This document shows, one piece after another, positions 23,085 to 37,826 of a DNA stretch of 64,000 nt; positions within the stretch are counted from its first letter, which is position 1, and every line of letters starts with the position of its first letter. Source of the DNA: a virus. The stretch lies in the IMG/VR virus record IMGVR_UViG_3300012953_006207, positions 16,697 to 80,696 of that record, one strand, 5' to 3'. The position numbers and the translations under genes are program-made. The notes beneath the pieces are model-generated. The model was not told the origin of the DNA and did not search any database. It saw nothing but the letters and a program-made list of their open reading frames with translations.

Positions 23085-24065
23085 ATGGACACAAACAAGT
23101 TATTCCCGAATGTTGTTGGCCAAAGCAAAGTGAAGCGCAAGCTCGCTTTTTACGCCAAAAATTACAAAGCGAACAGTCGCATTCCTCATCTGTTCTTTTC
23201 TGCGCCCAAGGGTGCAGGTAAGACTCATGTCGCTACGGCGATGAGTCGCTTGCTCGCCTCTCGCGAGAACGAGGGCAAGGCCAAGGTTTTGCGTACTGTC
23301 AACTGCTCTGAGTTCAAGGGCTTGGCAAAGTTCGTCAACGAGTTCCTTATTCCCAAGGTGGTTGACCAAGAGGTGACCGTGTTCTTTGACGAGTGTCACA
23401 TGATGCCCAAGCAAATCGCTAATGCATTGCTGACTATCCTCAACCCCAACAAGGATAGGCGTACTCAGTATTCCTACGAGGATTTCGACATGGACTTCGA
23501 TTTCACTCGTCAGTCTTTCATGATGGCGACCACCGAATACGACAAGGTATTCGAACCTTTGAAGTCTCGGTTCACTGAGATTACTCTCCAAGAGTACTCG
23601 TTGGAGGAGTTGGGCAAGATTGTCTCCTATAACCTTGATGGTTATGATTTCGAGGATGGCGTGTTGGAGGACATCGCCAGCGTTACCCGTGGCAATGCTC
23701 GCACGGCAACCACTCTGGCCGACGACATCAAAGACAATTTGGATATGCTCGGCACTACTGAGTTGACCAATGACATCTGGGATTACTTCAAGTACGCCCA
23801 CAACTTGAATCCGCTCGGCTTGTTCGAACGCGAGATTGGCGTACTCAACGTCCTTAACGAGAATCATCCGTCTCCGGTCAGCGTGTCTTTTGTTTGCGCT
23901 AATGTTGGAGATACCCTCGGCACTGTTCAGAATTACGAGAGGATGCTTATGAAGAATGGCCTCATGGAACGTGAGAATAACTGCCAGCGGTTAATTACCG
24001 CCAAAGGTCGCGATTACCTCACCAACCTAGAGGAGATAACCCAAAAGAATAAAGCATATGCATAA
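23085..24065 (+). CDS. ruvB: RuvB-like AAA+ ATPase (Holliday junction branch-migration motor-like)
   Basis: VVGQ, Walker A APKGAGKT, Walker B FFDECH, ATTE...PL.SRF, Y..EEL..I, RGNAR and a C-terminal YE..L...GL...R..T..G winged helix. Confidence 0.75.
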   Translation: MDTNKLFPNVVGQSKVKRKLAFYAKNYKANSRIPHLFFSAPKGAGKTHVATAMSRLLASRENEGKAKVLRTVNCSEFKGLAKFVNEFLIPKVVDQEVTVFFDECHMMPKQIANALLTILNPNKDRRTQYSYEDFDMDFDFTRQSFMMATTEYDKVFEPLKSRFTEITLQEYSLEELGKIVSYNLDGYDFEDGVLEDIASVTRGNARTATTLADDIKDNLDMLGTTELTNDIWDYFKYAHNLNPLGLFEREIGVLNVLNENHPSPVSVSFVCANVGDTLGTVQNYERMLMKNGLMERENNCQRLITAKGRDYLTNLEEITQKNKAYA

Positions 24066-24122
24066 AGACTGTACTGCATAGCAAGCGCGTTATAATTCGG
24101 GTTGTGCGCGTTTGTGTCCTAA

Positions 24123-24160
24123 GGCCCCACTTGAGATTGTCTGCTCAGGTGGGGTTTTTT
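24123..24160 (+). terminator. Rho-independent terminator
   Basis: GGCCCCACTTGAG/CTCAGGTGGGGTT stem followed by T6. Confidence 0.75.
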
Positions 24161-24199
24161 AATTTGACGTTTGCCGTGCGTGGTATTAAATTTTTTGAA

Positions 24200-24445
24200 A
24201 TGGAAACGATCATCACAAAGAGGAAGAAGAATCGATCAGATCACATTCATTCCAAAGTTAAAAACGTTTACAAAGTAATTATTGTTGAGCACGAGGGAGA
24301 GATGTGGGAAGTAGAGGAATGCCATAAGCTGAAAACAAATTTAGAAGATTTCAAAATCTCTCGCCAAGGGAAGTGGAGAAAAGTGGATAAGAGGAAGTTT
24401 ACCGCTAATACTATTAATGATATAGATTGTTATCGAACTCGTTAA
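24200..24445 (+). CDS. Hypothetical protein
   Basis: ATG 24200 (METIIT) downstream of a TTGACG...TATTAA promoter-like sequence. Confidence 0.55.
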   Translation: METIITKRKKNRSDHIHSKVKNVYKVIIVEHEGEMWEVEECHKLKTNLEDFKISRQGKWRKVDKRKFTANTINDIDCYRTR

Positions 24446-24473
24446 TTTCTCACAGCGTCACCTCACCCACCAC

Positions 24474-24508
24474 AAAGTAGGGACCTTAATTGGTCCCTGC
24501 TTTCTTTT
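24474..24508 (+). terminator. Rho-independent terminator
   Basis: AAAGTAGGGACC/GGTCCCTGCTTT stem followed by a T tract. Confidence 0.7.
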
Positions 24509-24652
24509 GTAGGTGTATATATACTCGATGGTAAGAGTACACTTTGACAGGTTATGTCTCGCTTAATTGCCAACCAACTAGACCATCAATAAGATCAAAA
24601 TAATCCATTTTTCCCAAATAAAGCAAATAAGGCAAATAAGTATTTTTTAGTG

Positions 24653-24729
24653 TTGACTTCCCCCCCCAGACCCCCGTGTCATCAGCCAAGGCTTGGCCAA
24701 TGACGTGGGGTCCCCAATTTTGCGTCAAG
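24653..24729. repeat. GC-rich palindromic element, copy 1
   Basis: TTGAC..CCCCCCCAGACCCCCGTGTCAT-cagccaaggcttggcca-ATGACGTGGGGTCCCCAATTTTGCGTCAAG. Confidence 0.9.
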
Positions 24730-24865
24730 TATAAAAGCGGTATTTCATGCAGAAAAAAAAGTACTTATAACGCAAAAAAAACCTTGGCCTAAATCCAGAA
24801 ATTGATTAATCTAAGTACAGAGTTAAGAGACACAACAAAGAAACAAGAAAGCGAGAATACATATT

Positions 24866-25792
24866 ATGCCTATCCTAAAACAAACCACTTCCGACTTCGA
24901 CTACAACGTGGCTACCGTGCCGACTTACGTCAAAGACCCTCACACGGGCGAGTTCATTCGCACCGGAGTCCACGCCAACCAGCGACAAGATGACGGGCGC
25001 GTGGTCGGCCCTATCGTTTCGCATCGTTACGGGCTTGCCCAGAATAGCGATGTCATCAACATTGGCGAAGCTGCCATGCGTAACGCTGGCTTGCCGATGG
25101 ATTCGGTGGAACGTAACGTGTCCGTGTACGGTGACGGCGAACGTATGCGCGTCACTTGGGATTTCCGCGACCAAACCAAGGCCGTGCGCGTTGAAGACCG
25201 CAAGGTCGGTGATGAGTTGGGCTTGCGCTTGTCACTGCAAAACTCCTTCAACCGCGAGACGAAGCTCTCGCTTAACCTTGGCTTGCTTCGCCTTGTTTGC
25301 TCCAATGGCATGACAGCCTTGGACAACGAGTTCGGGCTTTCCCAGAAGCATAACTCCAAGTTGAACCTCGGCGCGATGTCCAGCGCATTGTCTCGCGCTT
25401 TGGAGTCGTTCAACTCCGGTGCTGCTACCGAGGTTTTCCACTTGCTCGCCTCCAAAGAGGTCGAACAGGAACAGGGACTCATTGCCCTGCAAAACATGGT
25501 CAACGACAAGTTGTTCAGCGAACGCACTCGCAAGGGCATTGCCGAAATTTGGAATGCTCCAACCTTCGACGAAGACGGTGACCGCAACCTGTACAACCTG
25601 TACAACGCGGGTACTCAGTACCTCACGCACTCCATCGCGGACAATCGCCGTGAACTTGCGGAGAAGACTTCGCGCCGACTGCTCACCACGCTGAACACGG
25701 CGGTGCGTTCCGAGGCAAACCTGACAACCCTCATCACTCCGCGCAAGACGCTGCAAGTGGTCGAGACTGTCGAGGACTCCCTCGCCATCTAA
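24866..25792 (+). CDS. DUF932/DUF945 family protein
   Basis: VS.RY...QN, L.LQNSF and RLVCSNGM...H motifs, plus NLYNLYNA.TQY.TH; GC-rich codon usage. Confidence 0.85.
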   Translation: MPILKQTTSDFDYNVATVPTYVKDPHTGEFIRTGVHANQRQDDGRVVGPIVSHRYGLAQNSDVINIGEAAMRNAGLPMDSVERNVSVYGDGERMRVTWDFRDQTKAVRVEDRKVGDELGLRLSLQNSFNRETKLSLNLGLLRLVCSNGMTALDNEFGLSQKHNSKLNLGAMSSALSRALESFNSGAATEVFHLLASKEVEQEQGLIALQNMVNDKLFSERTRKGIAEIWNAPTFDEDGDRNLYNLYNAGTQYLTHSIADNRRELAEKTSRRLLTTLNTAVRSEANLTTLITPRKTLQVVETVEDSLAI

Positions 25793-25812
25793 GGGTAGGC
25801 TACCCAACCCAC

Positions 25813-25859
25813 AAATCCCTCGCCCTCTCCCCCATCCACGGGGGCGGGGGATTTTTTTT
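25813..25859 (+). terminator. Rho-independent terminator
   Basis: AAATCCCTCGCCC/GGGCGGGGGATTT stem followed by T8. Confidence 0.7.
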
Positions 25860-26024
25860 GTATTAATTAAATGCTTTTATTAGCGCGTCATTTCTGAGCG
25901 ACAAATCAATTTGCCAACCAAAAAACGCAGAAAGTGATCGGCAAGTTTTCGTGAAAAGGGGGGTTTTCTCGTGTGCGAAATTCGCCCGAAATACGAAATC
26001 TTCACGGGCTGTTGACAAGAAAAG

Positions 26025-26106
26025 CTTGACGGCAAATTGGGGACCCCATGTCATTAGCCAAGATTTGGCCAATGACGCGGGGGTCTGGGGGGGCATGGAA
26101 CTTGCT
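26025..26106. repeat. GC-rich palindromic element, copy 2 (inverted relative to copy 1), with sigma54-like site
   Basis: CTTGACGGCAAATTGGGGACCCCATGTCAT...ATGACGCGGGGGTCTGGGGGGG-CATGGAACTTGC. Confidence 0.9.
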
Positions 26107-26166
26107 CATTAAAAAAAATGCTTTTCCTGTATTGACTTATTCCAAGAATTAAACGATATTTAGGTT

Positions 26167-26376
26167 ATGGACGCTTTCAGAATCGCATTGGACACCAAAA
26201 GAAGGCATGGGTACAACTATCAAAATGGACGGTGGATTCGTGGCTTTCAACACAACGGAACTGCGGATGATGAAATTCGTTGGATGAAATGGCAAAGACT
26301 AGAAAAAGCATTGCGAACGATAGATGAAAACACTTCTTACGAGGACATAATTAAAAAAGTGATGGGAGGCGAGTAA
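26167..26376 (+). CDS. Hypothetical early protein
   Basis: TTGACT-17-GATATT at 26132-26160, ATG 6 nt later. Confidence 0.7.
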   Translation: MDAFRIALDTKRRHGYNYQNGRWIRGFQHNGTADDEIRWMKWQRLEKALRTIDENTSYEDIIKKVMGGE

Positions 26377-26927
26377 TGAGTTTTAATGATGATAAAAAAG
26401 AAATTCAAGAACGAGTCATAGACTTAATTGATAAAACGAATGATAAGTTTGGCTTGGGCATGGCGTACCCGACTATCACCTACGACCTAAAAGGTACGGT
26501 GGCGGGTCAGGCATTCTATTATGAGAATAAGTTGAGACTTAATTCTATAGCACTTAAAAAGTACCGCGAACATTTTATTGAACAAACTGTTGGGCATGAA
26601 GTTGCTCACCTCACTGCGTTCAAACGACACGGCGGTGGGATTTCTCCTCATGGAACCGAATGGAAGAACTTCATGAGATTCTTCCGTCTCCCACCAGACC
26701 GTTGCCATACTTATGATTTGCCATCCGCTCGCGGTGGGGGCAGGAAGCGATACGTTTGCCAGAGTTGCCCCAAAGAGTTTAGCCTCAGCACAATCAAACA
26801 CAACAGGTGGCTGCGCGGTGAAAGCAAGCTCAGTTGCCAACGGTGTGGTGGTAAAGTTGTGTGGGAAAACACAGTGCCACAAAAGAAAAAGCCCTCGGAA
26901 GTAGGAATGGACTTGATTGAATTCTAG
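26376..26927 (+). CDS. SprT-like zinc metalloprotease
   Basis: AG.A, HEVAHL, PHG.EWK..M and C-terminal CxxC...CxxC motifs. Confidence 0.88.
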   Translation: MSFNDDKKEIQERVIDLIDKTNDKFGLGMAYPTITYDLKGTVAGQAFYYENKLRLNSIALKKYREHFIEQTVGHEVAHLTAFKRHGGGISPHGTEWKNFMRFFRLPPDRCHTYDLPSARGGGRKRYVCQSCPKEFSLSTIKHNRWLRGESKLSCQRCGGKVVWENTVPQKKKPSEVGMDLIEF

Positions 26928-26947
26928 AAATGGAATAGTATAAGATT

Positions 26948-27199
26948 ATGAGAATGAAAGAAGCAATTAACGGCAGACTAGTTTACAACCAGAAGCGCAA
27001 CCAAGTGGAACGGATTCGCTCTACCAACCTCAACGGCTCGAGTCTGATGGTGTCTCGGCACGGCGATGACTTGATGGCAGCTAAGCTCTCAGACCTTAGG
27101 TATGCCACTCAGAACGAGGTTGATGTTTATAAGGCTGAGACTGCCGTCAACCAATCGATGCAAAACGGAATTGTCACACGCAACGGAGTGACAGTCTAA
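26948..27199 (+). CDS. Hypothetical protein
   Basis: 83-aa ORF followed by a terminator. Confidence 0.7.
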   Translation: MRMKEAINGRLVYNQKRNQVERIRSTNLNGSSLMVSRHGDDLMAAKLSDLRYATQNEVDVYKAETAVNQSMQNGIVTRNGVTV

Positions 27200-27211
27200 C
27201 TTTACTCGCTC

Positions 27212-27257
27212 GGCGGGTGGAGGGTTTTTCCGCTGGCCCTCCGCCCGCTTTCTTTTT
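27212..27257 (+). terminator. Rho-independent terminator
   Basis: GCGGGTGGAGGG/CCCTCCGCCCGC stem followed by a T tract. Confidence 0.75.
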
Positions 27258-27424
27258 CTGGACTTATTCTAAGAATTAGTGTAGATTGGAGTATGAAGAA
27301 TGAAACTATCTCACCAACGCAACAAGTACGGCTTCACCTAGGCTGTATATTTATACAACTTAAAAACAATCGGATGTCTAAGATTTGGTGGCATCTGAAA
27401 GGAATAGTTCGCTCTTTAATCTAA

Positions 27425-27880
27425 ATGAAAAAAAATGCTATTTATATCACTCTTTTGTTTCTTAGTTTTGCTCTCAATGCTGGGAAGAAGGACCTGACAG
27501 ACCAACAAGTTGTAGCTCTCACGATTCTCGGGGAGGCGCGTGGAGAAGGGGCGGGGGGTATGTATGGCGTCGCCTGTGTTATAGCCGAACGCTCTATCAA
27601 CTGGAAAAGGAACGGGCGCAAACAAACTCCCCGACAGGTATGTTTAGTAGACAAACAATTCGAATGTTGGAACAACGGAAAGATACCCAGCGAAAGATTA
27701 CTTGATACCCCACAAGGAAAGTATGCTCTTTATTTGGCTATGAATATAAAAAGAGTAGACCGTAGCTATGTAAACTTTGCTGACCATTTTTGTCATATCA
27801 AAAAAAATCCATATTGGGCGAGTGGACGCAAGCCAGTAGCTATCATAAAAAAACATAAGTTCTTCAAACTCAGGGGTTGA
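27425..27880 (+). CDS. Cell wall hydrolase, SleB/Hydrolase_2 family, with signal peptide
   Basis: A.TI.GEARGEG..GM..VA.VI, QFECWN, PYWA and H.FFK motifs. Confidence 0.88.
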   Translation: MKKNAIYITLLFLSFALNAGKKDLTDQQVVALTILGEARGEGAGGMYGVACVIAERSINWKRNGRKQTPRQVCLVDKQFECWNNGKIPSERLLDTPQGKYALYLAMNIKRVDRSYVNFADHFCHIKKNPYWASGRKPVAIIKKHKFFKLRG

Positions 27881-27911
27881 CTTATTCCAAGAATTAACCG
27901 ATACTGAATAC

Positions 27912-28202
27912 ATGGTAAGCGGATTGGTTAAACTACAGGCTAAAGAGGACGCACGTTCTTCCACCAAAAAAAGCATCGAAAAGCACGGGCCGTGGTTCGT
28001 GGTTGCTCGCGATTTCGTGCGAGACACAAAAGGACGCTTGGGGTATTACGTTTACCCCGCCAACGATGTAACGAATCTGCTCATGCAAAGCATGGCCGAC
28101 AAACGCGCAGGGTGTGAGTCTGCGTTGCCCCATCTATGGTCGGGCGTTCTGCGTCACGACGAGTGCGAACTCCTCAAGGGTTCAGCGAATATGTACCCTT
28201 AA
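27912..28202 (+). CDS. Hypothetical early protein
   Basis: TTGACT-17-GATACT at 27877-27905, ATG 6 nt later. Confidence 0.7.
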   Translation: MVSGLVKLQAKEDARSSTKKSIEKHGPWFVVARDFVRDTKGRLGYYVYPANDVTNLLMQSMADKRAGCESALPHLWSGVLRHDECELLKGSANMYP

Positions 28203-28246
28203 TTGCGTTGACTTATTCCAACAATTAACCCATAATTAGAAATCTT

Positions 28247-28600
28247 ATGAAAGCGGAACCATTAAAATCAAATCACTACAACCAAGCTCAAGAACTTGGT
28301 ATAACTAAAATCGTTCTCGAATGGTCGGGAGGAAGCGACGAGGGGCATCTCCATGTTTCTACTCAAGTAGCCGACAGGTTGGACGAAATCTCTGACGAGA
28401 AGCGTAAAACGATATATAGACTTGAAAGCGACATTGAGGAGTGGGGTTATGACGTTTACGAATATAGTGGCGCGGGTGACGGCAATCCCTACGGAGACAC
28501 AATTAAGTACGACCTTGTAAAAGGTACAGTCTCAACTGTGGAATGGTATACCAAAGAAGTCTACGACGAACCAGAAACTTTCACCTTGTCCGTTGATTAG
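28247..28600 (+). CDS. Conserved hypothetical protein (SGGSDEG motif; DUF6878-like)
   Basis: GI..I...WSGG.D.G pattern; adjacent to a DUF6915-like gene. Confidence 0.6.
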   Translation: MKAEPLKSNHYNQAQELGITKIVLEWSGGSDEGHLHVSTQVADRLDEISDEKRKTIYRLESDIEEWGYDVYEYSGAGDGNPYGDTIKYDLVKGTVSTVEWYTKEVYDEPETFTLSVD

Positions 28601-28602
28601 AC

Positions 28603-28959
28603 ATGACGCCTTGGAAACACGCTGAATCCTCTGTTGCCCGATGGGGTGGAGAACCTACTGACTACGTTGCTCTGCATGATTGGTTTGATGAGACAAAGCA
28701 ATTCACTGGTGATTGGACTCATCGCGCATTGCGTCACCACTCTGCGGGTATTCAATGGGCCGTTGAAAGGTTTGGACACGCCATAAGAAACTCAAAGGGT
28801 AAACTTATACCAACTAAAGCACTTGCGGAACAGCACGTTACAGAGGACTGCGGATTCATTCCGACACCACAAGATTGGCTCATGCAAGTTAAAGTGAATC
28901 CAGACCCTTGGATGTTAAAAGTTAAAACTAAAAGCGTAACAAAATTGGAAGTAAAATGA
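28603..28959 (+). CDS. DUF6915-like protein
   Basis: P..HA.SS...WGG...DY...HDWFD.TK...D..HRALRHH..GI...EQHV.ED.G.IPT..DW. Confidence 0.75.
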   Translation: MTPWKHAESSVARWGGEPTDYVALHDWFDETKQFTGDWTHRALRHHSAGIQWAVERFGHAIRNSKGKLIPTKALAEQHVTEDCGFIPTPQDWLMQVKVNPDPWMLKVKTKSVTKLEVK

Positions 28960-29129
28960 AAAGATACTCAGTAAAAATTAGAGAGGTACACGAACAGCAG
29001 ATATTTGTATCAGCTAAAGATGCAGATGACGCCAAAGAAAAAGCTGCCGAAGGAGTAGGGGATTTAGCTAATGGTACAGAGTTTTTGTATGCGCTGGATT
29101 CAGACACTTGGGAAGTAGAGGAGGACTAA
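28956..29129 (+). CDS. Small DpnD/PcfM-like protein
   Basis: Hand-translated MKRYSVKIREVHEQQIFVSAKDADDAKEKA; not in the ORF track. Confidence 0.6.
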   Translation: MKRYSVKIREVHEQQIFVSAKDADDAKEKAAEGVGDLANGTEFLYALDSDTWEVEED

Positions 29130-29291
29130 ATGACCAAAGAAGAAGTCAGAGAACAAATCCAAGAGGACATAATTACCTATCTTGAAGGCTTGCCATCTGG
29201 GTGGCTGATGGGGTTTGAGAAAATGCCTCAAGAGGAAATTGATGCACTTTGCCAAATCGTAGTAGACAACTTTAAGAAATTGGAGGACTAA
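29130..29291 (+). CDS. Small hypothetical protein
   Basis: Hand-translated; GAGGAC-TAA-ATG coupling. Confidence 0.6.
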   Translation: MTKEEVREQIQEDIITYLEGLPSGWLMGFEKMPQEEIDALCQIVVDNFKKLED

Positions 29292-29294
29292 ATT

Positions 29295-29468
29295 ATGAAA
29301 TACAAAGTACCAGTTAGTTGGCAGATGTACGGTCACGTTACCGTAGAAGCAGATACGCTTGAACACGCAGCAAAAATTGCTGAATCAGACATGGGTATTG
29401 GCTTGCCTGACAATGGTGAGTATGTAGAATCATCATGGGAAGTGGATTGGGCGGTATTGGAGGACTAA
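29295..29468 (+). CDS. Small DpnD/PcfM-like protein
   Basis: Hand-translated MKYKVPVSWQMYGHVTVEADTLEHAAKIA. Confidence 0.6.
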   Translation: MKYKVPVSWQMYGHVTVEADTLEHAAKIAESDMGIGLPDNGEYVESSWEVDWAVLED

Positions 29469-29636
29469 ATGAAAACATCAGAAAGAACAGAACAACTTGC
29501 CCGTGACATGGTTGATTCATGGGATGACAAAGACTTGTATAGTTTTGCGGTAGACATGGTAACAGAGAACCTTGAGAAGTGCGACGAGGAAGAATTTAAG
29601 TCTGAATGGAATAACTATTACGGAGAGGATGCATAA
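29469..29636 (+). CDS. Small acidic protein (paralog of 14891-15121)
   Basis: Hand-translated ...LARDMVDSWDDKDLYSFAVDM...EEFKSEWNNY. Confidence 0.6.
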   Translation: MKTSERTEQLARDMVDSWDDKDLYSFAVDMVTENLEKCDEEEFKSEWNNYYGEDA

Positions 29637-29836
29637 TGGAACATAATCACAAACAAGACCAACACGATAGAATAATGATTAACCGAATCAAGGACGACCT
29701 TGAGGATTGGTTGACTACTCATGGAGAAATCACAATGGGCAGCGAGATGGTTAAAGATGTTCACCGACTCATTGACGAATCGGTGCATCGCACCAAACTC
29801 ATGCGAAAGGATTGGATGAAGCCAGACAGAAGTTAA
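29636..29836 (+). CDS. Small hypothetical protein
   Basis: TAATG overlap with the upstream stop; GAGG SD. Confidence 0.6.
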   Translation: MEHNHKQDQHDRIMINRIKDDLEDWLTTHGEITMGSEMVKDVHRLIDESVHRTKLMRKDWMKPDRS

Positions 29837-29896
29837 AGTCATAGCCAAATAAATTTGCCCATTTAAATAAATATAAATAAATAATAATCCCCTTCA

Positions 29897-29962
29897 CCCC
29901 CCCAGACCCCCGTGTCATCATCCAGATGGCCAATGACGTGGGGTCCCCATTTTTGAGTCAAG
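29897..29962. repeat. GC-rich palindromic element, copy 3
   Basis: CCCCCCCAGACCCCCGTGTCAT-catccagatggcca-ATGACGTGGGGTCCCCATTTTTGAGTCAAG. Confidence 0.9.
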
Positions 29963-30114
29963 CCTAAAGTGAGGAATTTTTTTAGAAAAAGTGCCTCTGA
30001 GGCATTGACTTTTTCTAGTAATTGAATTAGATTGGTTGAAGATGAACGACGCGGAAAGAGTAGCACAGGACAAACGGATTTTAGAATGGTGGAGGCTCAC
30101 AAAGAATTTATCAA

Positions 30115-30150
30115 GTAGGACAGCGGATGTCCCACCTCCCGTGGTAGGGT
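30115..30150 (+). promoter_or_regulatory. Palindromic-box promoter (GTAGGACA-GCGGA-TGTCCCAC + TGn-TAGGGT), copy A of 5
   Basis: Same box at 32480, 32727, 33741 and 33964, each followed by an extended -10 and a leaderless ATG. Confidence 0.7.
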
Positions 30151-30156
30151 ATGCAT

Positions 30157-30291
30157 ATGAAAAAAAACAAGAAACAACCGAAGGCGCGAGTGAATCCCGA
30201 AGGCTACATGGGCAGCGCATCGCGTGAGCATAAAGTGAAGAAGGGCAAAGGCTCTTACAAGCGGAACAAAAAAATTAACCCAGAGGACTAA
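30157..30291 (+). CDS. arfA: ArfA-like (alternative ribosome rescue factor) peptide, 44 aa
   Basis: Hand-translated MKKNKKQPKARVNPEGYMGSASREHKVKKGKGSYKRNKKINPED; carries the KKGKGSY.R signature. Confidence 0.55.
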   Translation: MKKNKKQPKARVNPEGYMGSASREHKVKKGKGSYKRNKKINPED

Positions 30292-30298
30292 AAAGATT

Positions 30299-30715
30299 AT
30301 GAGTAAAACAAGTGTTCAAAAATGCGGAACCAACTGGCGCGTGATTCTCACAGGAGACGCCCAAGCAATCGAAACCAAACATTGGTCAATGTTCAATCAT
30401 GGCGCGACAAGCTCCGACCTCGAATGGGAAACGGCAAATTGCGCGTGGTTCTGGTCTACTCCTGAAAAGATTTTGAAAGCGTTTACCAACGCGCATCTTT
30501 TCTCATACTTGAATCAATTTGATTTGATAGGAGACGAACCAGAAGTGGCAGGGCATGAAGCAAAAGCTCACAATGACGCAAAGCAGGAATTTTTTGCGAT
30601 GGGGAATATGCCTAGCTTCAAGCCGTTTCGCTCTGTTTCAATCCTGAATTTGGATTGCTTCGCGATGGGTACGGGTTCGGCTCGTGCTGAAAAAATGGCA
30701 GTAGAAACCAAGTAA
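30299..30715 (+). CDS. Hypothetical protein
   Basis: 138-aa ORF, GAGG SD. Confidence 0.7.
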   Translation: MSKTSVQKCGTNWRVILTGDAQAIETKHWSMFNHGATSSDLEWETANCAWFWSTPEKILKAFTNAHLFSYLNQFDLIGDEPEVAGHEAKAHNDAKQEFFAMGNMPSFKPFRSVSILNLDCFAMGTGSARAEKMAVETK

Positions 30716-30734
30716 AGAAAAAGGTTTATTTGAT

Positions 30735-31487
30735 ATGAAAATTCTCTCTATCGATGCAGACGCAAAAACCGTTAAAGGTCTCAAGAAAGGCTATCGCACT
30801 GCGATTAGCTACCTTGCGCCCAGTAACGCCAGCGGTGTAATGAATACTTGCCCAAGTGCAAGCAAAGGGTGTCGGGCTGCTTGTCTTTACGGGGCAGGTC
30901 GTGCCAAGTTCACGCCATCAATTCCAAAGGCGCGAATCAACAAAACAAAGTTTTTTCATTCCGACCCTGTAGGCTACGGCCAGCAGCTTTACAAGGAATT
31001 AAAAGCTCACCAGAAAAGCTCTGCGCGTAAAGGCTTAACACCTACCGTGCGCCTCAACGGAACAAGCGATATTGCTTGGGAGGATTTCATTCTAGAGGAA
31101 ACGGGGAAAAACGTTTTTGAATCTTTCCCCGATTTACAATTTTATGACTATACCAAGCGGACAAACCGCGTTGCGGATTATGCAGACGGCAAGCTTCCGA
31201 AAAATTACCACCTCACGTTTTCAAAGAGTGAAAACACCAGCGACGAACAAGTTGCAAAGATTCTGGGTTGGGGTGTCAACGTTGCGGTAGTCTACGCAAA
31301 CGAATTGCCCGAAGCTGACTTTGACGGTTGGCAGGTTATCAATGGCGACGAAAACGATTTACGCTTCCTCGACCCCATCGGCGTTGTTGTTGGTCTAAAG
31401 TATAAAAAGACTTCAGCAACTGAGGAGGACAAAAACGGATTTGTTCGCGAGTTGAAATTTGCAAACGCAGTTCTTGAGACTGCATAA
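30735..31487 (+). CDS. GP88-like phage protein (C-x6-C-x3-C, radical-SAM-like)
   Basis: YLAP...NTCP.AS.GC...CL..AG, RLNGTSDI.WE, FYDYTK, NYHLTFS.SE, NVAVV and GD..DLRFLDP motifs. Confidence 0.75.
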   Translation: MKILSIDADAKTVKGLKKGYRTAISYLAPSNASGVMNTCPSASKGCRAACLYGAGRAKFTPSIPKARINKTKFFHSDPVGYGQQLYKELKAHQKSSARKGLTPTVRLNGTSDIAWEDFILEETGKNVFESFPDLQFYDYTKRTNRVADYADGKLPKNYHLTFSKSENTSDEQVAKILGWGVNVAVVYANELPEADFDGWQVINGDENDLRFLDPIGVVVGLKYKKTSATEEDKNGFVRELKFANAVLETA

Positions 31488-31608
31488 CAAAAAACCGAAA
31501 GGAAAAAAAATGCTATGGATAACGTTATCTATCATATCAGCCGTAGTACTTTGTAAATTGGTATCAAAATAAAAAAATAAAATAATAGCTCCCCCTTGAC
31601 AGGGGGGG

Positions 31609-31681
31609 CAAATTGGGGACCCCATGTCATTAGCCGAACACGGCCAATGACGCGGGGGTGTGGGGGGGTACAGAACTTGCT
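31609..31681. repeat. GC-rich palindromic element, copy 4, with sigma54-like site
   Basis: CAAATTGGGGACCCCATGTCAT-tagccgaacacggcca-ATGACGCGGGGGTGTGGGGGGG-TACAGAACTTGC. Confidence 0.9.
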
Positions 31682-31759
31682 TCGGAACCATTTAAAAAAA
31701 AGAAAAAAAATGACCGTTAGGGGGTTGACTTATTCCAAGAAAGAGAGTAGATTAAGAGA

Positions 31760-32146
31760 GTGGACAGGGGTAAGACCCAGTACGAGCCCAAGGGCAGGAT
31801 TACAAAATCTAGGCAGACAGTATGCGACGAGGGCAAGAAGCTGTAAGACCCTCGGCCTGAAACTGCCGTTTAAATTTCTCGCAACAACGCGAGGAAGCAT
31901 AGGTGAAGAACATTAAACGTCCGTGAGAGGCAACGGCCTATGCAACAATTTACTGGGAGGCAGAATACAGTCTAGGCAAGCCTAACGTAGCGAACGGGGT
32001 ACGCGCCCTGTTAGGGACGAGGAAGCACCAGTAGACGTTTTCGCAATAACGCGGGAATGAAACTAACTAGAAAGGTAACATAGTGCAGGAGGTTGGCCAG
32101 AGAAGGCGGTTACCGCTGGGCCGTAAAGCACTTGAAAAATGCCTCT
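31760..32146 (+). ncRNA. Candidate large structured non-coding RNA (~390 nt)
   Basis: Starts at +1 of the family promoter (TTGACT 31725, TAGATT 31748), has no credible long ORF, and contains more than 10 nested helices. Confidence 0.65.
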
Positions 32147-32159
32147 TAATTTTTGATAA

Positions 32160-32366
32160 ATGAAAAACTACAAAACATACCAAGCCCGTAACGCTGTCAA
32201 AGCAGCGCAAGTCACCAACCACATCAAATCCCGCAAGGCTCAAGGCGTTGAACACAACGAAGCTAAAGCTGAAGCGTATTATATATATAATATAAAACAG
32301 GGTAAGAAAATTATTCTAAACACCCTAAACTACGCAACGCCTACCAAATCTCTGGTATGTAAATAA
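32160..32366 (+). CDS. Small basic hypothetical protein
   Basis: 68-aa ORF directly after the candidate ncRNA. Confidence 0.55.
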   Translation: MKNYKTYQARNAVKAAQVTNHIKSRKAQGVEHNEAKAEAYYIYNIKQGKKIILNTLNYATPTKSLVCK

Positions 32367-32393
32367 ATAATAAAAATAACAAGTCTGGGTTCA

Positions 32394-32454
32394 CCCCCAG
32401 ACCCCCGTGTCATTGTCCTTGGCCCATGACGTGGGGTCCCCAAAAACGGTCAAG
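32394..32454. repeat. GC-rich palindromic element, copy 5
   Basis: CCCCCAGACCCCCGTGTCAT-tgtccttggccc-ATGACGTGGGGTCCCCAAAAACGGTCAAG. Confidence 0.9.
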
Positions 32455-32522
32455 CTTTATTTTTTTTATTTATTTAAATGGTGGGACAGCCAATGTCCTA
32501 CCCCCCATGGTAATCTATACGC

Positions 32523-32729
32523 ATGAAGTTTGAGACAGGAACACAAGTACAGCACCGCGACAACCCCATGTGGAAGGCCGTTGTGGTGCGCGACCTCAAC
32601 CCCCGCAAGCCAGTGAATAGCTGTGTGATGGTGAATCACAACGGGCGGGAAGTGCCAATGGGCAAGAGTCTTTTGCGGGTATCCTTCCACGCAGACGCCA
32701 AAAAAGAATTTGGCGAAGTTGTAAGCTAG
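32523..32729 (+). CDS. Small SH3-like protein (paralog of 37306-37503)
   Basis: V.H...VV.DLNP..PV motif shared; palindromic-box promoter at 32480-32516. Confidence 0.65.
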   Translation: MKFETGTQVQHRDNPMWKAVVVRDLNPRKPVNSCVMVNHNGREVPMGKSLLRVSFHADAKKEFGEVVS

Positions 32730-32766
32730 GACAGCGGATGTCCTACCTCCTATGCTAGATTTAGAT

Positions 32767-32967
32767 ATGAATATGAAGCAAGTAAAGATAGTGATAAACG
32801 AAAATGATACACTTTGCCGTATCAGCATCAACGGATTCGCAAGCGAACACAAATGCGAGGTGCATGAGTCCGACCACGAAGGTAAAGACGCCACCACAAT
32901 CAACATCGACGGCGTGGGAGATTTTATTTCTTACAACGATTGCAAAAGCTGGGAAGTGATGGACTAA
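32767..32967 (+). CDS. Small hypothetical protein
   Basis: Palindromic-box promoter at 32727-32761 implies a start at 32767. Confidence 0.6.
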   Translation: MNMKQVKIVINENDTLCRISINGFASEHKCEVHESDHEGKDATTINIDGVGDFISYNDCKSWEVMD

Positions 32968-32971
32968 AATT

Positions 32972-33163
32972 ATGAGTATGAGTAACAACAAAAAGACGGA
33001 GCTAGAAGCTCGAAAAGTATACGCACACGGCGTGAACAAAGACACACACTTCAACACCCCACAAGGGCCGAAGCCATATCCAAAAGTCAATTACGACAAG
33101 ATGTGGAACGTTGAAGGTTATTATAGCGACGATAACGGAAACGACATCAGAGACAGAGACTAG
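32972..33163 (+). CDS. Small hypothetical protein
   Basis: Co-oriented, coupled ORF. Confidence 0.55.
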   Translation: MSMSNNKKTELEARKVYAHGVNKDTHFNTPQGPKPYPKVNYDKMWNVEGYYSDDNGNDIRDRD

Positions 33164-33172
33164 GAAACGATT

Positions 33173-33475
33173 ATGGAAAAAAAGAATTACATTATCAATC
33201 TACACGCAGTAGGTGAGAAGAAGATTACCAGCGGTTACGCTGGCCCCCGTGAAGTATGCGGTCACTTTAGCACACCCGCAAAGGTTGGCACTATCGCCTT
33301 TGAAGAGGCTAAGATGAATGCAGTAGACTACTACTGGAATCAAAACAAGCGTTACTGGCACGGCTACCGCATTGGCAAGTTAGAAGTAGAAGTTGGGCGC
33401 GAGTCTGTCAGCGTAATGACTCCCGCTTGGGACTATCACAAGGGACGCACGTTCCCCGTATGGGAGGAGGTATAG
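33173..33475 (+). CDS. Hypothetical protein
   Basis: 100-aa ORF, AGGA SD. Confidence 0.65.
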   Translation: MEKKNYIINLHAVGEKKITSGYAGPREVCGHFSTPAKVGTIAFEEAKMNAVDYYWNQNKRYWHGYRIGKLEVEVGRESVSVMTPAWDYHKGRTFPVWEEV

Positions 33476-33649
33476 AATCAAAAGCAGAAGATACAACGCA
33501 GACAAAGAAACGAGTAAACAGTTTTACGCTAGAAGAAAAAAGGAGATGGAAGATTATTTTAATCACCCTTATTATAAAACTTACTCTGAAAAAATTTGGG
33601 CCGAATATAAAAAAGCTAACAAATAGTATTGTCTTTGTCGAAAAAGTTA

Positions 33650-33714
33650 AAATTGGGGACCCCATGTCATCGTCCATTGTGGCCAATGACACGGGGACCC
33701 CATTTTGCGTCAAG
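33650..33714. repeat. GC-rich palindromic element, copy 6 (hybrid, GGGGACCCC at both arms)
   Basis: AAATTGGGGACCCCATGTCAT-cgtccattgtggcca-ATGACACGGGGACCCCATTTTGCGTCAAG. Confidence 0.85.
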
Positions 33715-33783
33715 GAAAAAGTTTATTGATAATTCTTTTAGGTAGGACGGCGGATGTCCTACCCCCTATGGTAGATTAGACAC

Positions 33784-33951
33784 ATGATGATGAACGACAA
33801 CAACAAGATGAACAAAGAACAATTCAAAAACGAAGTGCTGGCCCTAGTGTCAGAGGATGCGTTGCCAATGGTGGACGCACTAACTGACCAAGGATTTGCC
33901 GAAGGCTGGACACCAGCCGAAGTAGCTGGACAATGCGAAGCTGATGCATAA
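33784..33951 (+). CDS. Small hypothetical protein (MMMNDNN...)
   Basis: Hand-translated; leaderless start after the palindromic-box promoter at 33741-33777. Confidence 0.6.
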   Translation: MMMNDNNKMNKEQFKNEVLALVSEDALPMVDALTDQGFAEGWTPAEVAGQCEADA

Positions 33952-34006
33952 AAGAAATTAAAGGGTAGGACGGCGGATGTCCGACCCCCTGTGTTATATT
34001 TACTAC

Positions 34007-34150
34007 ATGATTATGAGCATATACGAAGTTCAAACCCACGACGGAGACGCTACCCTTGGATGGATACAAGGACATGATGACGACCACGCCCAGCGCGTAG
34101 CCGAGAGGCTTTACTGCAAAGGCGTACTGGTTGTTCTTTGCGATGACTAA
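34007..34150 (+). CDS. Small hypothetical protein
   Basis: Hand-translated; leaderless start after the palindromic-box promoter at 33964-34000. Confidence 0.6.
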   Translation: MIMSIYEVQTHDGDATLGWIQGHDDDHAQRVAERLYCKGVLVVLCDD

Positions 34151-34203
34151 AAAACTATGGGCCAGCGTGATGGCCTTGGAGATCACGCCCTTATTAAATC
34201 ATT

Positions 34204-34401
34204 ATGATTGAACTCGGAATGCAAGTGGAGGATATGCGCGGTTACCTTGGTGTGGTCGCTGCCTCCCCACGCGGTGGCAAGTGGTTCATCCTCAAAAAGG
34301 ATGGACGCATGGTTCGCCGTGCTGACCATGAGATTCGTGAATACGACGAGTCTTATTGCCCAGCCTTCGAAAAGTGGCTGGAGAAGCGTTCGCTTCGTTA
34401 G
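34204..34401 (+). CDS. Small hypothetical protein
   Basis: 65-aa ORF followed by a CCCCC-TAGT-GGGGG hairpin. Confidence 0.6.
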   Translation: MIELGMQVEDMRGYLGVVAASPRGGKWFILKKDGRMVRRADHEIREYDESYCPAFEKWLEKRSLR

Positions 34402-34459
34402 TATCAACCCCCCCTAGTGGGGGGCTTTAATTTATTTTTATTTATATATTTATATCGTT

Positions 34460-34852
34460 ATGGAAAAAGTACAAGTTTATCGCAACCTGCATCGGACAGA
34501 AGAAGACGGAACGCACGTTTATAGCGTTCGCAATGACAAGGGCATTGTCGTAGACCACGTTGCAGAAATTACATTGAGTCGTCCTATCTTGAGAGTCGGC
34601 CCCAAAGGTAATCAGCGAGTGCGTGATGAGAAACGTAAAAACGTTCATGCTTATATCCAAGGCATGAAGATGAAAGAGTCAGTGATTGATGACCCCCGCT
34701 CAGGCGAAAAAAAGTGCGAGTGGCAAAAGATTACTTATAACCCTTATAAACATAAGAGTTTTGTTTTAGTAAAGGACGAGTCCGTTGCAGTGCGTGAAGC
34801 GTGGTTTGTTGAGATTCGTCGAGATGGTGTTTGGGCGTGGCTCCCGGAGTAA
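34460..34852 (+). CDS. Conserved phage protein (VYRNLH...KRKNVHAY...TYNPYK)
   Basis: Motif pattern recalled from many tailed phages; function unknown. Confidence 0.75.
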   Translation: MEKVQVYRNLHRTEEDGTHVYSVRNDKGIVVDHVAEITLSRPILRVGPKGNQRVRDEKRKNVHAYIQGMKMKESVIDDPRSGEKKCEWQKITYNPYKHKSFVLVKDESVAVREAWFVEIRRDGVWAWLPE

Positions 34853-34906
34853 GAACCCCAGTTCCCTGAACGCTAATAAATACCAAACAATTAATATCAA
34901 TATTGA

Positions 34907-34973
34907 AAATTGGGGACCCCATGTCATTAGCCTTGGCCAATGACGCGGGGGTCTGGGGGGGTACGATTCTTGC
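34907..34973. repeat. GC-rich palindromic element, copy 7, with sigma54-like site
   Basis: AAATTGGGGACCCCATGTCAT-tagccttggcca-ATGACGCGGGGGTCTGGGGGGG-TACGATTCTTGC. Confidence 0.9.
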
Positions 34974-35056
34974 TAAGTCCATGCCCAGTAAAGTTGTGAA
35001 TAACTTTCGAGGAACTCCCCTTGACTTATTCCAGTAATTAAGGTAGGTTTATCTCG

Positions 35057-35308
35057 ATGATTAAAACGACTACAGTCAAAGTAACCGCCAGACCCAACGC
35101 CAAGGCCCGCACCAAAAACCGCCTTCGGGATCATGGTCCCATGTTCAAGGACGTGACCGAATTAAACACTGGCCACAGTGTGCGCCACGATGAAAAACTT
35201 GGCGACTGTGTGCTGCTGCGTTCTTTGAAGAAGCCACAGCTAGGCTGGGCGCAGCCTTGGAATGGCTGGTTGTCTCTTGATGAAATTGTTGTGAATAAGT
35301 TTGAGTAG
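35057..35308 (+). CDS. Hypothetical early protein
   Basis: Promoter TTGACT at 35021; similar in pattern to the 27912 ORF (A..RTK.....HGP.F). Confidence 0.65.
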   Translation: MIKTTTVKVTARPNAKARTKNRLRDHGPMFKDVTELNTGHSVRHDEKLGDCVLLRSLKKPQLGWAQPWNGWLSLDEIVVNKFE

Positions 35309-35351
35309 AAACCCCCTTGACTTATTCCAGTAAATCCCTTATTGTATTCCC

Positions 35352-35666
35352 ATGATGAACGACGACCTACGAGACCTAATGCCCACCAGTGAAGAGTTCT
35401 ACGCCAGCATGGCCCCCGCGCCAGTTGACGAGAACGGAATGACGCCTGACGAGCGTGACGAGTACGAGTCCGAGTATAATGCTTATCTCGATTCCATTGG
35501 CACTTCCTTTGCCGAAGTGCAGGAGAAATCCCGTCAGTTCGCTGACGACCTTGAGAACGCTTACAAGTGCGACGACGACGAAGACGACCATGACAGCATG
35601 AATGACGGCCACGGAACGCTGGCGGATGATGCATGGCACGATGCCAACGAATACCCTGAGTGGTAG
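35352..35666 (+). CDS. Highly acidic small protein (DNA-mimic candidate)
   Basis: About 32 Asp/Glu against 5 Lys/Arg in 104 aa; leaderless from the promoter at 35317-35345. Confidence 0.7.
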   Translation: MMNDDLRDLMPTSEEFYASMAPAPVDENGMTPDERDEYESEYNAYLDSIGTSFAEVQEKSRQFADDLENAYKCDDDEDDHDSMNDGHGTLADDAWHDANEYPEW

Positions 35667-35672
35667 GGCCAG

Positions 35673-35750
35673 AGCAACGCCCGTGCCAACATGGGCCATT
35701 GTGAATAACTTGGCCAATGACGCGGGGGTCTGGGGGGGCATGATTCCTGC
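35673..35750. repeat. Half-element copy 8 with divergent sigma54-like sites and a DnaA box
   Basis: AGCAACGCCCGTGCCA..GGCCATTGTGAATAACTTGGCCAATGACGCGGGGGTCTGGGGGGG-CATGATTCCTGC. Confidence 0.85.
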
Positions 35751-35863
35751 TGTGGTTCCTGAGAATTTTTTTTAGAAAAAGTGCCTTTGGGGGGTTGACT
35801 TTTTCCAACAATTGAACGATATTTAAGAAGTCAGCAGGACAACAAACAGAAAGAGAAAACAAG

Positions 35864-35983
35864 ATGAGCATACAGAGAGAAGACATCGAATGGGATTCAG
35901 CGCAAGCCGAATCAGAGTACGACATCAGCGAAGAGAAAATGGCCAAGTTGGAAAACATGGCGTGGGACAACGACAACGACTAG
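35864..35983 (+). CDS. Small acidic peptide
   Basis: Hand-translated MSIQREDIEWDSAQAESEYDISEEKMAKLENMAWDNDND. Confidence 0.5.
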   Translation: MSIQREDIEWDSAQAESEYDISEEKMAKLENMAWDNDND

Positions 35984-35997
35984 ACGAAAGGAATCAG

Positions 35998-36363
35998 ATG
36001 AACGATAACAAGTTGTATAACAAGCGGGCCTTCGGACTTCCGAAGATGGAACTCCCCAACGGAACTATGAGCCTGACCTACTCCGGTCACGCTCGGACTG
36101 CTGCTGCACGTCCCGAACGTTTCGGGTACGCCGAGAACATCGACCTGCCTCGCGCAATCAACCTGAACGATTGCGAAGTGGTCGAAGCTGAAATGGCAAA
36201 GGGTAACCCTGTACCGGAAAAGATTGTTGTGCGTTACCCGTACAGCGACAACATGGACTTGGTTATGCCTATGTATATGGACGGATTCGTTAAGACCGTA
36301 TGGCTTAATGACCGTTACGACCAGCACCGCACCCTCGACAAGCGTCGCTATGCACGGCCTTAA
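35998..36363 (+). CDS. Conserved phage protein (HA...R...VKTVWLN...D.H.TLD...Y; DUF4258-like)
   Basis: AAGGA SD before MNDNKL; motif pattern. Confidence 0.65.
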   Translation: MNDNKLYNKRAFGLPKMELPNGTMSLTYSGHARTAAARPERFGYAENIDLPRAINLNDCEVVEAEMAKGNPVPEKIVVRYPYSDNMDLVMPMYMDGFVKTVWLNDRYDQHRTLDKRRYARP

Positions 36364-36596
36364 CGACAAGCAACAGTTCGGAGAATGGCTCGACAAGTTT
36401 GACGGGCCTCTCCGTTCTCTTTATGAAGACTATAAAGAAAAGAACTATAAACCGTTGTCATACTTTGCGTGGTGCTTGGGCGTGTACCAAGAAACCAAGT
36501 ATGCCGACACGTTGAGGAATAATTGATATGGAATTGATTGTATTTATTACAAGCTCAAGCATAGTCGCCTTCTGGTACGCCGAGGCGTTCCACTAA

Positions 36597-36671
36597 AGCA
36601 AGGCCCGTGCCAGCACAGGCCATTGTGAATAACTTGGCCAATGACGCGGGGGTCCCCCAATTTGCGTCAAG
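36597..36671. repeat. Half-element copy 9 with a sigma54-like site and a DnaA box
   Basis: AGCAAGGCCCGTGCCA..GGCCATTGTGAATAACTTGGCCAATGACGCGGGGGTCCCCCAATTTGCGTCAAG. Confidence 0.85.
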
Positions 36672-36761
36672 GTTATTTTCAAGAAAGTTATCCACGGTTT
36701 GCGAATAACTTTTTCCAGAAAGTCCCTTGACTTTTTCCAGCAATGTGTTATCTTATTACAG

Positions 36762-36998
36762 ATGAACGACAACGGAACATTCATAGGGCTAGTCAAGGCT
36801 GGCAAAGCTCAAAACGTAGTACCCACTTCCCGCAAGATGAACATGGCAGCAGCATTGGCGGGGGCGGTCAGCTTACGCGACGCAGAACAGTACTTCCGTA
36901 GGCTACAACACGCAAACAACATGGGAACCACTGAGGCGGACTATGCAGAACTAGAACGCAAGTTTTATGCGGAACACGGCTACCCTCATGGGTATTAA
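36762..36998 (+). CDS. Hypothetical early protein (MNDNG...)
   Basis: Promoter TTGACT at 36727 implies a start at 36762. Confidence 0.65.
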   Translation: MNDNGTFIGLVKAGKAQNVVPTSRKMNMAAALAGAVSLRDAEQYFRRLQHANNMGTTEADYAELERKFYAEHGYPHGY

Positions 36999-37064
36999 AA
37001 AAAATCAAAAAAAATTAGAAAAACCCCTTGACTTTTTCCAGCAATTAGACTATATTTAAACAAG

Positions 37065-37259
37065 ATGAACGACATAAAAAAGACCAAAACCACTAACTGG
37101 ACAAGCTACAAACGCGAACGTTTCAACAAGGCGGAATTCAACGCTGAAATGGCTCGCATTGAAAAGCAGACTTTTGTACTGCAACACATTACATCTTTCT
37201 GCATCGGGGCAAGCATTGCGCTCGGATTCGTATTGATTCACATGATTGTAACTGGATAA
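37065..37259 (+). CDS. Small membrane-anchored early protein
   Basis: Promoter TTGACT-17-TATATT at 37028-37056; C-terminal hydrophobic helix. Confidence 0.65.
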   Translation: MNDIKKTKTTNWTSYKRERFNKAEFNAEMARIEKQTFVLQHITSFCIGASIALGFVLIHMIVTG

Positions 37260-37305
37260 AAAAACCGCTTGACTTTTTCCAGAATATCCCTTACATTATA
37301 AACAG

Positions 37306-37503: not shown

Positions 37504-37518
37504 AAAATTTAAAGAGAC

Positions 37519-37719: not shown

Positions 37720-37794
37720 AATCGGAGGTTATAGTCATGTTGTGTTTAGCAATCATCACCTTACTAGTCATCGTTTACTAGTCGTTCGTCATCA

Positions 37795-37826
37795 CCCGCC
37801 CCCTTCTTCGGAGGGGGGTGGTTTTT
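37795..37826 (+). terminator. Terminator closing the early region
   Basis: GCCCCCTTC-TTCG-GAGGGGGGT (UUCG loop) followed by T5. Confidence 0.75.

Follow-up and report, generated by a model that had tools for sequence, protein, structure and literature searches.

Nine copies of a GC-rich, imperfect palindrome, here called E1 to E9, divide the early region of an uncultured marine phage into small gene units, and we interpret each copy as the boundary module of an early transcription unit. This module would be a passively recombining cassette made of a terminator or insulator and a promoter, like the early promoter–stem-loop (PeSL) cassettes of T4-type phages; we give this interpretation a probability of about 0.5. 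The stretch analyzed (the window) comprises the final 64 kb, positions 16,697 to 80,696, of the 80,696-bp single-contig viral record IMGVR_UViG_3300012953_006207, with an estimated completeness of 51% (CheckV). A previous examination of the letters alone (the sequence-only reading) had already proposed that the elements partition the region and recombine with each other, and both proposals stood, while its idea of an active and undescribed system of cassette shuffling or protein loading did not.

In the arrangement that we propose, the core of the element (a palindrome of 41–46 bp) would fold into an RNA hairpin whenever the upstream unit is read through, and this hairpin may attenuate the read-through or protect the 3' end of the upstream message, as suggested by its position and by a homologous hairpin followed by eight T in a relative (L058, see below). 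The downstream side would supply the start signals of the next unit, i.e., a sigma54-type box in four copies and a promoter of a repeated family in eight, most of these promoters presumably firing onto a leaderless ATG. Selection together with exchange between copies would keep the elements alike, and elements and promoter repeats would provide the homology for ordinary recombination to add, remove, or move promoter-gene units; cassette turnover would not need a dedicated enzyme. The idea of a terminator-promoter cassette would thus be extended beyond the T4-type phages to an uncultured marine lineage, with each cassette appearing to be assembled from exchangeable parts, namely a core of fixed polarity, flanks of two types, and promoters of three classes that seem to replace each other. 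The polar core with its two swappable flank types is a new feature, and so is the presence of different palindromes at the same gene junctions in relatives, which amounts to a natural experiment in which the factor recognizing them could be sought.

Distribution of the Elements

The left-arm motif AAATTGGGGACCCCA, with up to two mismatches allowed, gave six matches against 0.05 expected, a number reached by none of 100 shuffles. The right-arm motif GGCCAATGACGYGGGG, with up to three mismatches, gave 15 against 0.28 expected, made up of the right arm of all nine copies on the + strand and the left arm of six copies on the - strand. Seven copies are full palindromes (E1–E7, stems of 41–46 nt) and two are half copies that keep only the right arm, preceded by another left module termed Z (E8 and E9). 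The sequence-only reading had listed nine palindromic copies at these places, 0.8–3.8 kb apart, always intergenic, and found nowhere else in the 64 kb. All of this was confirmed far above chance: the spacings are 1372, 3861, 1714, 779, 1260, 1254, 777, and 924 nt, and both arm motifs are confined to window positions 24669–36641 within the whole 80,696-bp contig. Every gene of the region reads on the + strand, and the nine copies lie between plausible genes of that strand, 33–248 nt after the preceding stop codon; the only overlaps are with doubtful TTG-start open reading frames (ORFs), such as 33427–33729 on E6. The coordinates are collected in Table 1.

Table 1. Repeated elements, family promoters, and a gained cassette (window positions unless another contig is named; flanks given as left-right)
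Feature	Position	Strand	Form and flanks	Stem	Details
E1	24661-24729	+	full, X'-Y'	24669-24712	C-run flank on the left, CCCCAATTTTGCGTCAAG flank on the right; fold -24.0 kcal/mol, z -3.3
E2	26025-26106	+	full, Y-X	26041-26086	G-run and sigma54-type box 26091-26106; fold -27.7 kcal/mol, z -3.1
E3	29897-29963	+	full, X'-Y'	29905-29947	
E4	31600-31681	+	full, Y-X	31617-31662	sigma54-type box 31666-31681
E5	32389-32450	+	full, X'-Y'	32400-32440	central box GGCCCATGAC; no T-run
E6	33647-33715	+	full, Y-Y'		fold -28.8 kcal/mol, z -3.6; sole copy varying among close relatives
E7	34904-34974	+	full, Y-X	34914-34955	sigma54-type box 34959-34974
E8	35668-35751	+	half, Z-X		- strand box 35673-35688, then TGTGAATAACTT; + strand box 35736-35751; z -0.35
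E9	36597-36672	+	half, Z-Y'		- strand perfect box 36597-36612, then right arm and Y'-like flank; z -1.07
TTGACT-N17-nATAnT early promoter (example)	26132-26160	+			behind E2; others behind elements at 30005, 31725, 35021, 35795, 36727
TTGACT-type starts with no element in front	27259, 27877, 28208, 35317, 37028, 37269				
Palindrome + extended -10 promoter	32480-32522	+			behind E5; same type behind E6 at 33741
Palindrome-type starts with no element in front	30114, 32725, 33964				
Inserted unit	L051 3404-3664, at window 36597				promoter-gene cassette gained at element edge

A Polar Core with Swappable Flanks

The center of every copy is the box GGCCAATGAC (with a single variant, in E5), continued by G, one variable base, and GGGG, and it lies on the + strand in 9/9 copies. 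In seven copies a left arm pairs with this box, composed of GACCCC, A or CG, TGTCAT, and three looser bases. The gap from GTCAT to ATGAC varies between 12 and 17 nt, in agreement with the variable loop described before, and such variation is easier to reconcile with a hairpin than with a rigid protein dimer.

Two main types of flank surround this center. Type X is a G-run, which in the rightward copies continues into (C/T)A(T/C)-N5-(C/T)TGCT, and type Y is AAATTGG plus CTTGAC further out. The flanks flip between copies while the center keeps one polarity, so that the statement that copies occur in both orientations holds for the outer flanks and fails for the central box. The copy said to carry the same arm at both ends, E6, does have one flank type on either side. 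All six segments between full elements are bounded by matching inverted flank types (Y'...Y or X...X'), which would happen by chance about once in 64 if the types were independent, the count having been made post hoc.

Folded as RNA, E1, E2, and E6 reach -24 to -37 kcal/mol (z -3.1 to -6.2) on either strand, and the hairpin expected from read-through of the core lies between -17 and -29 kcal/mol. The half copies E8 and E9 fold no better than shuffles on the + strand (z -0.35 and -1.07), values with which we dropped the idea that they form alternative hairpins. At gathering score Rfam gave no match in the whole window, and in E-value mode a single weak one between 24500 and 36800 (34349–34428), outside all elements. 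Readings of the motif as a Pho box, a parS site, or a G-quadruplex, inspected by eye alone, were left unsupported.

Constraint and Exchange between Copies

Close variants of the window were found with a 21-nt core pattern. They comprise ten metagenome contigs and one viral contig, 82–99% identical to the window over the aligned pieces, and cover the copies unevenly (one contig each for E1 and E3, two each for E2, E4, and E5, and five to seven for E6–E9). Eight of the nine copies (E1–E5 and E7–E9) show no change at all in these 11 contigs. Mismatches per site comparison amount to 16/1213 in the element cores, all of them in E6, 0/344 in the X flanks and 10/416 in the Y flanks, compared to 49/1426 in the TTGACT promoters, 213/8080 (2.6%) in other intergenic DNA, and 643/6722 at third codon positions. 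Such low values in the cores point to strong constraint, either through selection on the elements or through sequence exchange that keeps the copies alike. That copies do exchange sequence, as proposed in the sequence-only reading, is evident from E6, itself a hybrid, and from the version of E6 in the variant L050, which has the inner arms of E1 within the outer flanks of E6.

Promoters behind the Elements

A family promoter is located 39–70 nt past the stem in eight of the nine elements, six of the TTGACT type and two of the palindrome type; behind E1, 71 nt past the stem, there is only a weak promoter-like site. The stretch from element to promoter is A/T-rich. In the TTGACT family the ATG mostly comes 6–10 nt past the -10 element, and the palindrome type consists of a 23-bp palindrome followed by an extended -10. 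Between 26132 and 37297 three promoter classes (TTGACT, palindrome plus extended -10, and sigma54) seem interchangeable, all with a message start at or just before the ATG. The small gene at 30151–30291, for example, has a palindrome-class promoter in the window, TTGACA in the relative L002 (6860–6910), and a sigma54-type box in L058 (2111–2140).

A further motif, TGTGAATAACTT, recurs 20–35 nt upstream of -35 hexamers (window ~34995, 35290, 35697, 36621, and 36680–36712), in places as part of a palindrome AAGTTATTCACA...TGTGAATAACTT. It is common to the window and the relative L003 (~12437–12470 and 15201–15227) and may be the site of a conserved regulator. Downstream of the 31725 promoter, in the interval separating E4 from the gene at 32160, a stretch of some 390 nt (31760–32149) holds no credible ORF or Rfam match and bears small indels in the close variants.

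Sigma54-Type Boxes

Promoters of sigma54 follow the consensus TGGCAC-N5-TTGCW, with GG and GC 10 nt apart. The pattern GGYAY-N5-YTGCW has eight matches in the window against 1.4 expected, six of them inside elements. Four X flanks bear the box on the + strand, where it adjoins the hairpin, and the two Z modules have a perfect TGGCAC-N5-TTGCT on the - strand. The extension of the X flank to TTGCT is found in 4/4 rightward copies and 0/3 leftward ones, and the only boxes that precede genes in the window's own contig are those within elements.

Two closer relatives, L058 and L060, were retrieved by a search with the gp82-like protein (L003 and L060 were read as loci only, and L058 as the whole record G001). 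In L060 a palindrome built on a perfect box stands ahead of a TTGACT promoter, and in L058 the run T8 and a perfect sigma54-type box come, in this order, behind a homologous long hairpin. The complete record G001 contains 13 perfect boxes, 11 of them on the gene strand within 9 kb (L127, G001:27000–41000), with no match for a reversed control pattern. Nine of these 11 (TGGCAC-N5-YTGCT) end 10–18 nt ahead of the ATG of a small ORF, which places the predicted start at the ATG or a few nt before it; the remaining two precede a tRNA-Arg (TCT) gene and a short ORF that by eye resembles the one at 30151–30291 of the window. Boxes also stand beside the elements of L002 and L003, mostly facing into the palindrome. 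An extracytoplasmic function (ECF)-type or sigma70-type reading of the X flank and the G001 boxes was discarded, the spacing to the ATG being unlike that of a -10 element.

The junction of a sigma54-type box with a hairpin cassette is a new feature and the less expected part of the system. It is conceivable, although we regard it as rather doubtful, that this uncultured marine lineage runs part of its early program through sigma54-type promoters that start leaderless messages, with the palindromes anchoring or insulating it. The palindromes would then be, e.g., activator-binding enhancers or stops that shield the promoters, and the window would be a case in which palindrome, sigma54-type box, and sigma70-type promoter are fused. 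If the boxes, whose activity is predicted from their letters, do work, the phage would use for its leaderless early genes a form of the host polymerase that depends on an ATPase activator. Among the papers listed by a full-text search, none describes such a use of sigma54 by a phage in its title or abstract.

Gene Order in Relatives and Breakpoints in Close Variants

The region 24000–37500 has no megablast match among cultured phage records. Viral loci bearing GP88 (L004–L045) mostly share only that gene with the window (five checked: L005, L006, L011, L012, and L016). The loci L002 and L003 share the window order of RuvB-like gene, DUF932, the 30151/30299/GP88 unit, and the gp82-like gene; within that unit L003 matches only GP88, and L002 additionally has the gene at 32160. 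The motif of the window was not found in L002 or L003. L002 has nine G7-CAG-C7 hairpins with inward-facing CTTGAC flanks, and L003 has a box of its own on the + strand at 17/17 sites, single or double around a GC hairpin and often with a C-run. These elements occupy the junctions of E1, E2/E3, E4, and E7, i.e., RuvB-like/DUF932, DUF932/next unit, after GP88, and after the gp82-like gene. Downstream of DUF932, before the next unit, a single element is present in L002 and L003, as against two in the window (E2 and E3) that enclose a 3.8-kb block; the gene for the cell-wall hydrolase of this block is located elsewhere in both relatives. Comparison of cassette order, as suggested in the sequence-only reading, therefore found gene-content differences that coincide with the elements in these two distant relatives, bearing in mind that element sites are also unit borders, where rearrangements are most likely to survive.

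The close variants present a different picture. They differ from the window at 12 places, none of them within 40 nt of E1–E7, of which E1–E5 are covered by only one or two contigs each. Five of the 12 are bounded by promoter repeats: the gene at 35057–35308, for instance, is replaced or deleted between two promoter copies, and the gene at 33784–33951 is replaced between two palindrome promoters. Another two abut the left edge of the half copies. In one of them (L051 and L052) a complete palindrome promoter with a leaderless ORF of ~70 codons has been inserted just before E9, and in the other an acidic C-terminal tail has been swapped between two early ORFs. This tail (~30 residues plus stop) sits on ORF 35352–35666 in the window (35568–35667; 34147–34157) and on the homologue of ORF 33977–34150 in L050 (1073–1172) and in contigs of two runs, and the swap runs through GAC-codon repeats. 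Among contigs of four runs, aligned over 22000–39000, none of the 15 joints listed (of 48) falls in an element, several having short sides; these contigs end inside repeats and so cannot show exchange across elements.

A run of five very small genes (28953–29698) shares a repeated GGAGGACTAAATG start region. The variant L046 lacks 744 nt of this run, which suggests that these start-region repeats also act as recombination points.

Weighing the Explanations

Several observations weigh against a boundary cassette that works through its hairpin. In each of the seven full copies the more stable fold is that of the - strand, and folding energy therefore gives no argument for a sense transcript; G-U pairs favoring the + strand were considered and dropped after folding, since the asymmetry comes from an invariant right arm and a looser left one. 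The covariation check put forward in the sequence-only reading turned out to be uninformative: none of the 13 pairs shows a compensatory change among the seven full copies and two E6 variants, and ten of the 13 never vary, so that pairing is neither supported nor contradicted. In the half copies, which do not fold, every letter of the right arm is retained, and together with the single orientation of the box this argues for sequence recognition beyond structure alone. As terminators the hairpins are poor by the canonical definition (a GC-rich stem followed within 0–2 nt by at least five T in 8 nt). Four X-type copies and E5 have no T-run, that of the Y' copies begins ~5 nt past the stem, and a scan with the terminator consensus called no full hairpin and only a 5-bp inner piece of E3. 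Ordinary T-rich terminators are found elsewhere (24121, 24474, 27212, and 37796), two of them directly upstream of E1 and E2, and nine family promoters of the region have no element in front. Sigma54 domains were not found on G000, G001, or G002, nor was a sigma54 activator on the phage fragments, where the Sigma54_activat search was non-discriminating as it matched 14/14 control genomes.

Because most copies have no T-run, the box never changes polarity, and the half copies are intact, a sequence-specific protein site remains a serious rival. A phage protein might bind the box TTGGCCAATGACG and its GGGG clamp to repress or activate the early promoters, the palindrome being a pair of sites, and we consider this possible but not probable. 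Besides the constant strand of the box and its exact preservation in half copies that do not fold, such operator or enhancer-like sites would account for the eight copies unchanged in 11 variant contigs and for relatives that have each their own box at the same junctions, as L003 with 17/17 on the + strand and some single boxes. They would also fit flanks that imitate the -35 hexamer of each phage (CTTGAC in the window, CTTGACAA in L002), and asymmetric repressor sites that are dispersed in the same orientation over short intergenic spaces have a precedent in the stoperators of cluster A mycobacteriophages (PMC9283540). However, a rigid dimer would not tolerate the variable gap between the arms, the sites are restricted to 12 kb instead of being genome-wide, no candidate DNA-binding protein was identified, and relatives substitute plain G-run/C-run hairpins for the box, one of them then followed by T8. 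A further reading that we find unlikely is that host sigma54 polymerase sits at the -24/-12 boxes of the X and Z flanks and is opened by an activator at or near the palindrome. The four co-oriented X-flank boxes and two perfect Z boxes, the extension of the X flank to TTGCT only toward genes, the recurrence of boxes adjoining palindromes in L002, L003, L058, and L060, and the 11 co-oriented perfect boxes of G001 with starts predicted at or a few nt before the ATG are all in its favor. Nevertheless, the palindrome center lies ~35 nt upstream of the -24 GG, nearer than usual for activator sites, the Z boxes and most of those in L002 are antisense to the genes, and the sequences upstream of the 11 G001 boxes look dissimilar, by eye without alignment. 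Neither sigma54 nor its activator was found on the phage fragments.

We regard as very unlikely an active site-specific system, attC-like or inserting into palindromes, in which the X...X' blocks at 26.1–29.9 and 31.7–32.4 kb would have entered the centers of Y-Y' palindromes through an enzyme that recognizes the folded hairpin. The inverted flanks matching in six of six segments would be expected from it, the genes of Y-flanked segments are syntenic in L002 and L003, where the X-flanked E2–E3 block is absent from that junction, and a RuvB homologue and an ERCC4-type nuclease are encoded. Yet the cassettes bear their own promoters, no empty site appears in any variant or among the 15 listed joints, and no private variant links the X end of a block to its X' end. 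E1 and E2 are the pair most alike (69 nt, 87% complementary), which fits the opposite pairing equally well. As in the sequence-only reading, no tyrosine or serine recombinase or transposase was seen, here among ~70 proteins scanned against Pfam in an incomplete record, and with 0/12 close-variant breaks at full elements and no compensatory pairs its undescribed shuffling or loading system is not sustained. The other alternatives it offered, centromere-like sites for the phage tubulin or single-strand priming sites, seem to us extremely improbable. Nothing speaks for them beyond the tubulin/FtsZ-family gene (52986–54134) and the ability of a single strand, better the - strand, to fold; the tubulin gene is 16.3 kb from the nearest element, the sites are scattered at promoter-adjacent unit borders and not clustered by a partition operon, no primase was identified, and the promoter-linked flanks would be left unexplained.

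Other Phage-Encoded Functions

Three sigma-related proteins are encoded by the phage: an ECF-type sigma factor, a four-region sigma70-type factor, and a third protein with sigma region 2 (L057 10565–11224 and 12872–13798; window 46379–47080). The window also encodes a full-length RuvB homologue directly ahead of the element region (23085–24065, shared with L002 and L003), an ERCC4 nuclease with a zinc finger (48179–49126), and the tubulin-family protein mentioned above. A tRNA search of the window found none. In the terminase only the N-terminal domain matches a T4-like family, and the best cultured relative has 25% identity.

Comparison with Known Systems

Integron attC sites, repetitive extragenic palindromic (REP) elements, and miniature inverted-repeat transposable elements (MITEs) are, like the present elements, imperfect palindromes with variable centers at the borders of gene cassettes. 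An integron comprises an integrase and promoterless cassettes, each followed by a single site in a constant orientation. Here no integrase or other recombinase was found among ~70 proteins (record 51% complete), the units have their own promoters, and both flank orientations occur, and we have rejected an attC identity. We also rejected a host REP or MITE: a search with the 21-nt core over one representative genome per species, which more diverged copies would escape, found no multi-copy bacterial repeat, only a lone 21-mer in apparent coding DNA with no partner arm, and the match to a host repeat envisaged in the sequence-only reading did not appear.

The early genes of phage T7 contain several irregular intergenic RNase III hairpins of ~50–60 nt, with internal loops and shared sequence. 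They resemble the early-region hairpins described here, but T7 early genes share upstream promoters whereas nearly every unit here has its own, and the half copies here do not fold. Stoperators resemble our elements as short asymmetric boxes in short intergenic spaces, oriented with transcription and of phage-specific sequence; they measure 13 bp, form no palindromes, number more than 20 over the whole genome, and are bound by the known monomeric repressor of a temperate phage (PMC9283540). The box described here, in contrast, lies within a palindrome, is restricted to 12 of 80.7 kb, and has no repressor identified.

The closest parallel is with the PeSL cassettes. According to the two reports (Arbiol et al., 2010, PMC2839356; Comeau et al., 2014, PMC4122927), each of these lies in a variable region and combines an early promoter and its small gene with a stem-loop and an AT-rich stretch. 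In the stem-loop, which directly precedes the promoter, a G-run pairs with a C-run, half or degraded copies are described, and crossovers map either to the AT-rich part or to the interval from the -10 element to the ATG. Our elements differ in several respects. The phage is not demonstrably of T4 type, and its palindrome is long (41–46 bp), irregular, and nearly invariant, with a center of fixed polarity and two flank types that swap sides. In four copies the hairpin is separated from the sigma70-type promoter by a sigma54-type box, the genes downstream are for the most part predicted to be leaderless and not preceded by a Shine-Dalgarno sequence, and most copies have no T-run, which makes terminator activity doubtful. 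Even so, the claim that the elements resemble no established analogue was wrong with regard to architecture. As in the PeSLs, so far as these sources describe them, a GC-rich stem-loop, an AT-rich stretch, and an early promoter stand in that order in the intergenic space before a small gene, and half or degraded copies occur. All copies lie within 12 kb, among ~35 small ORFs of which the majority have no family hit. Element sequences again differ from one phage lineage to another, and five of the 12 places at which close variants depart from the window break at promoter repeats.

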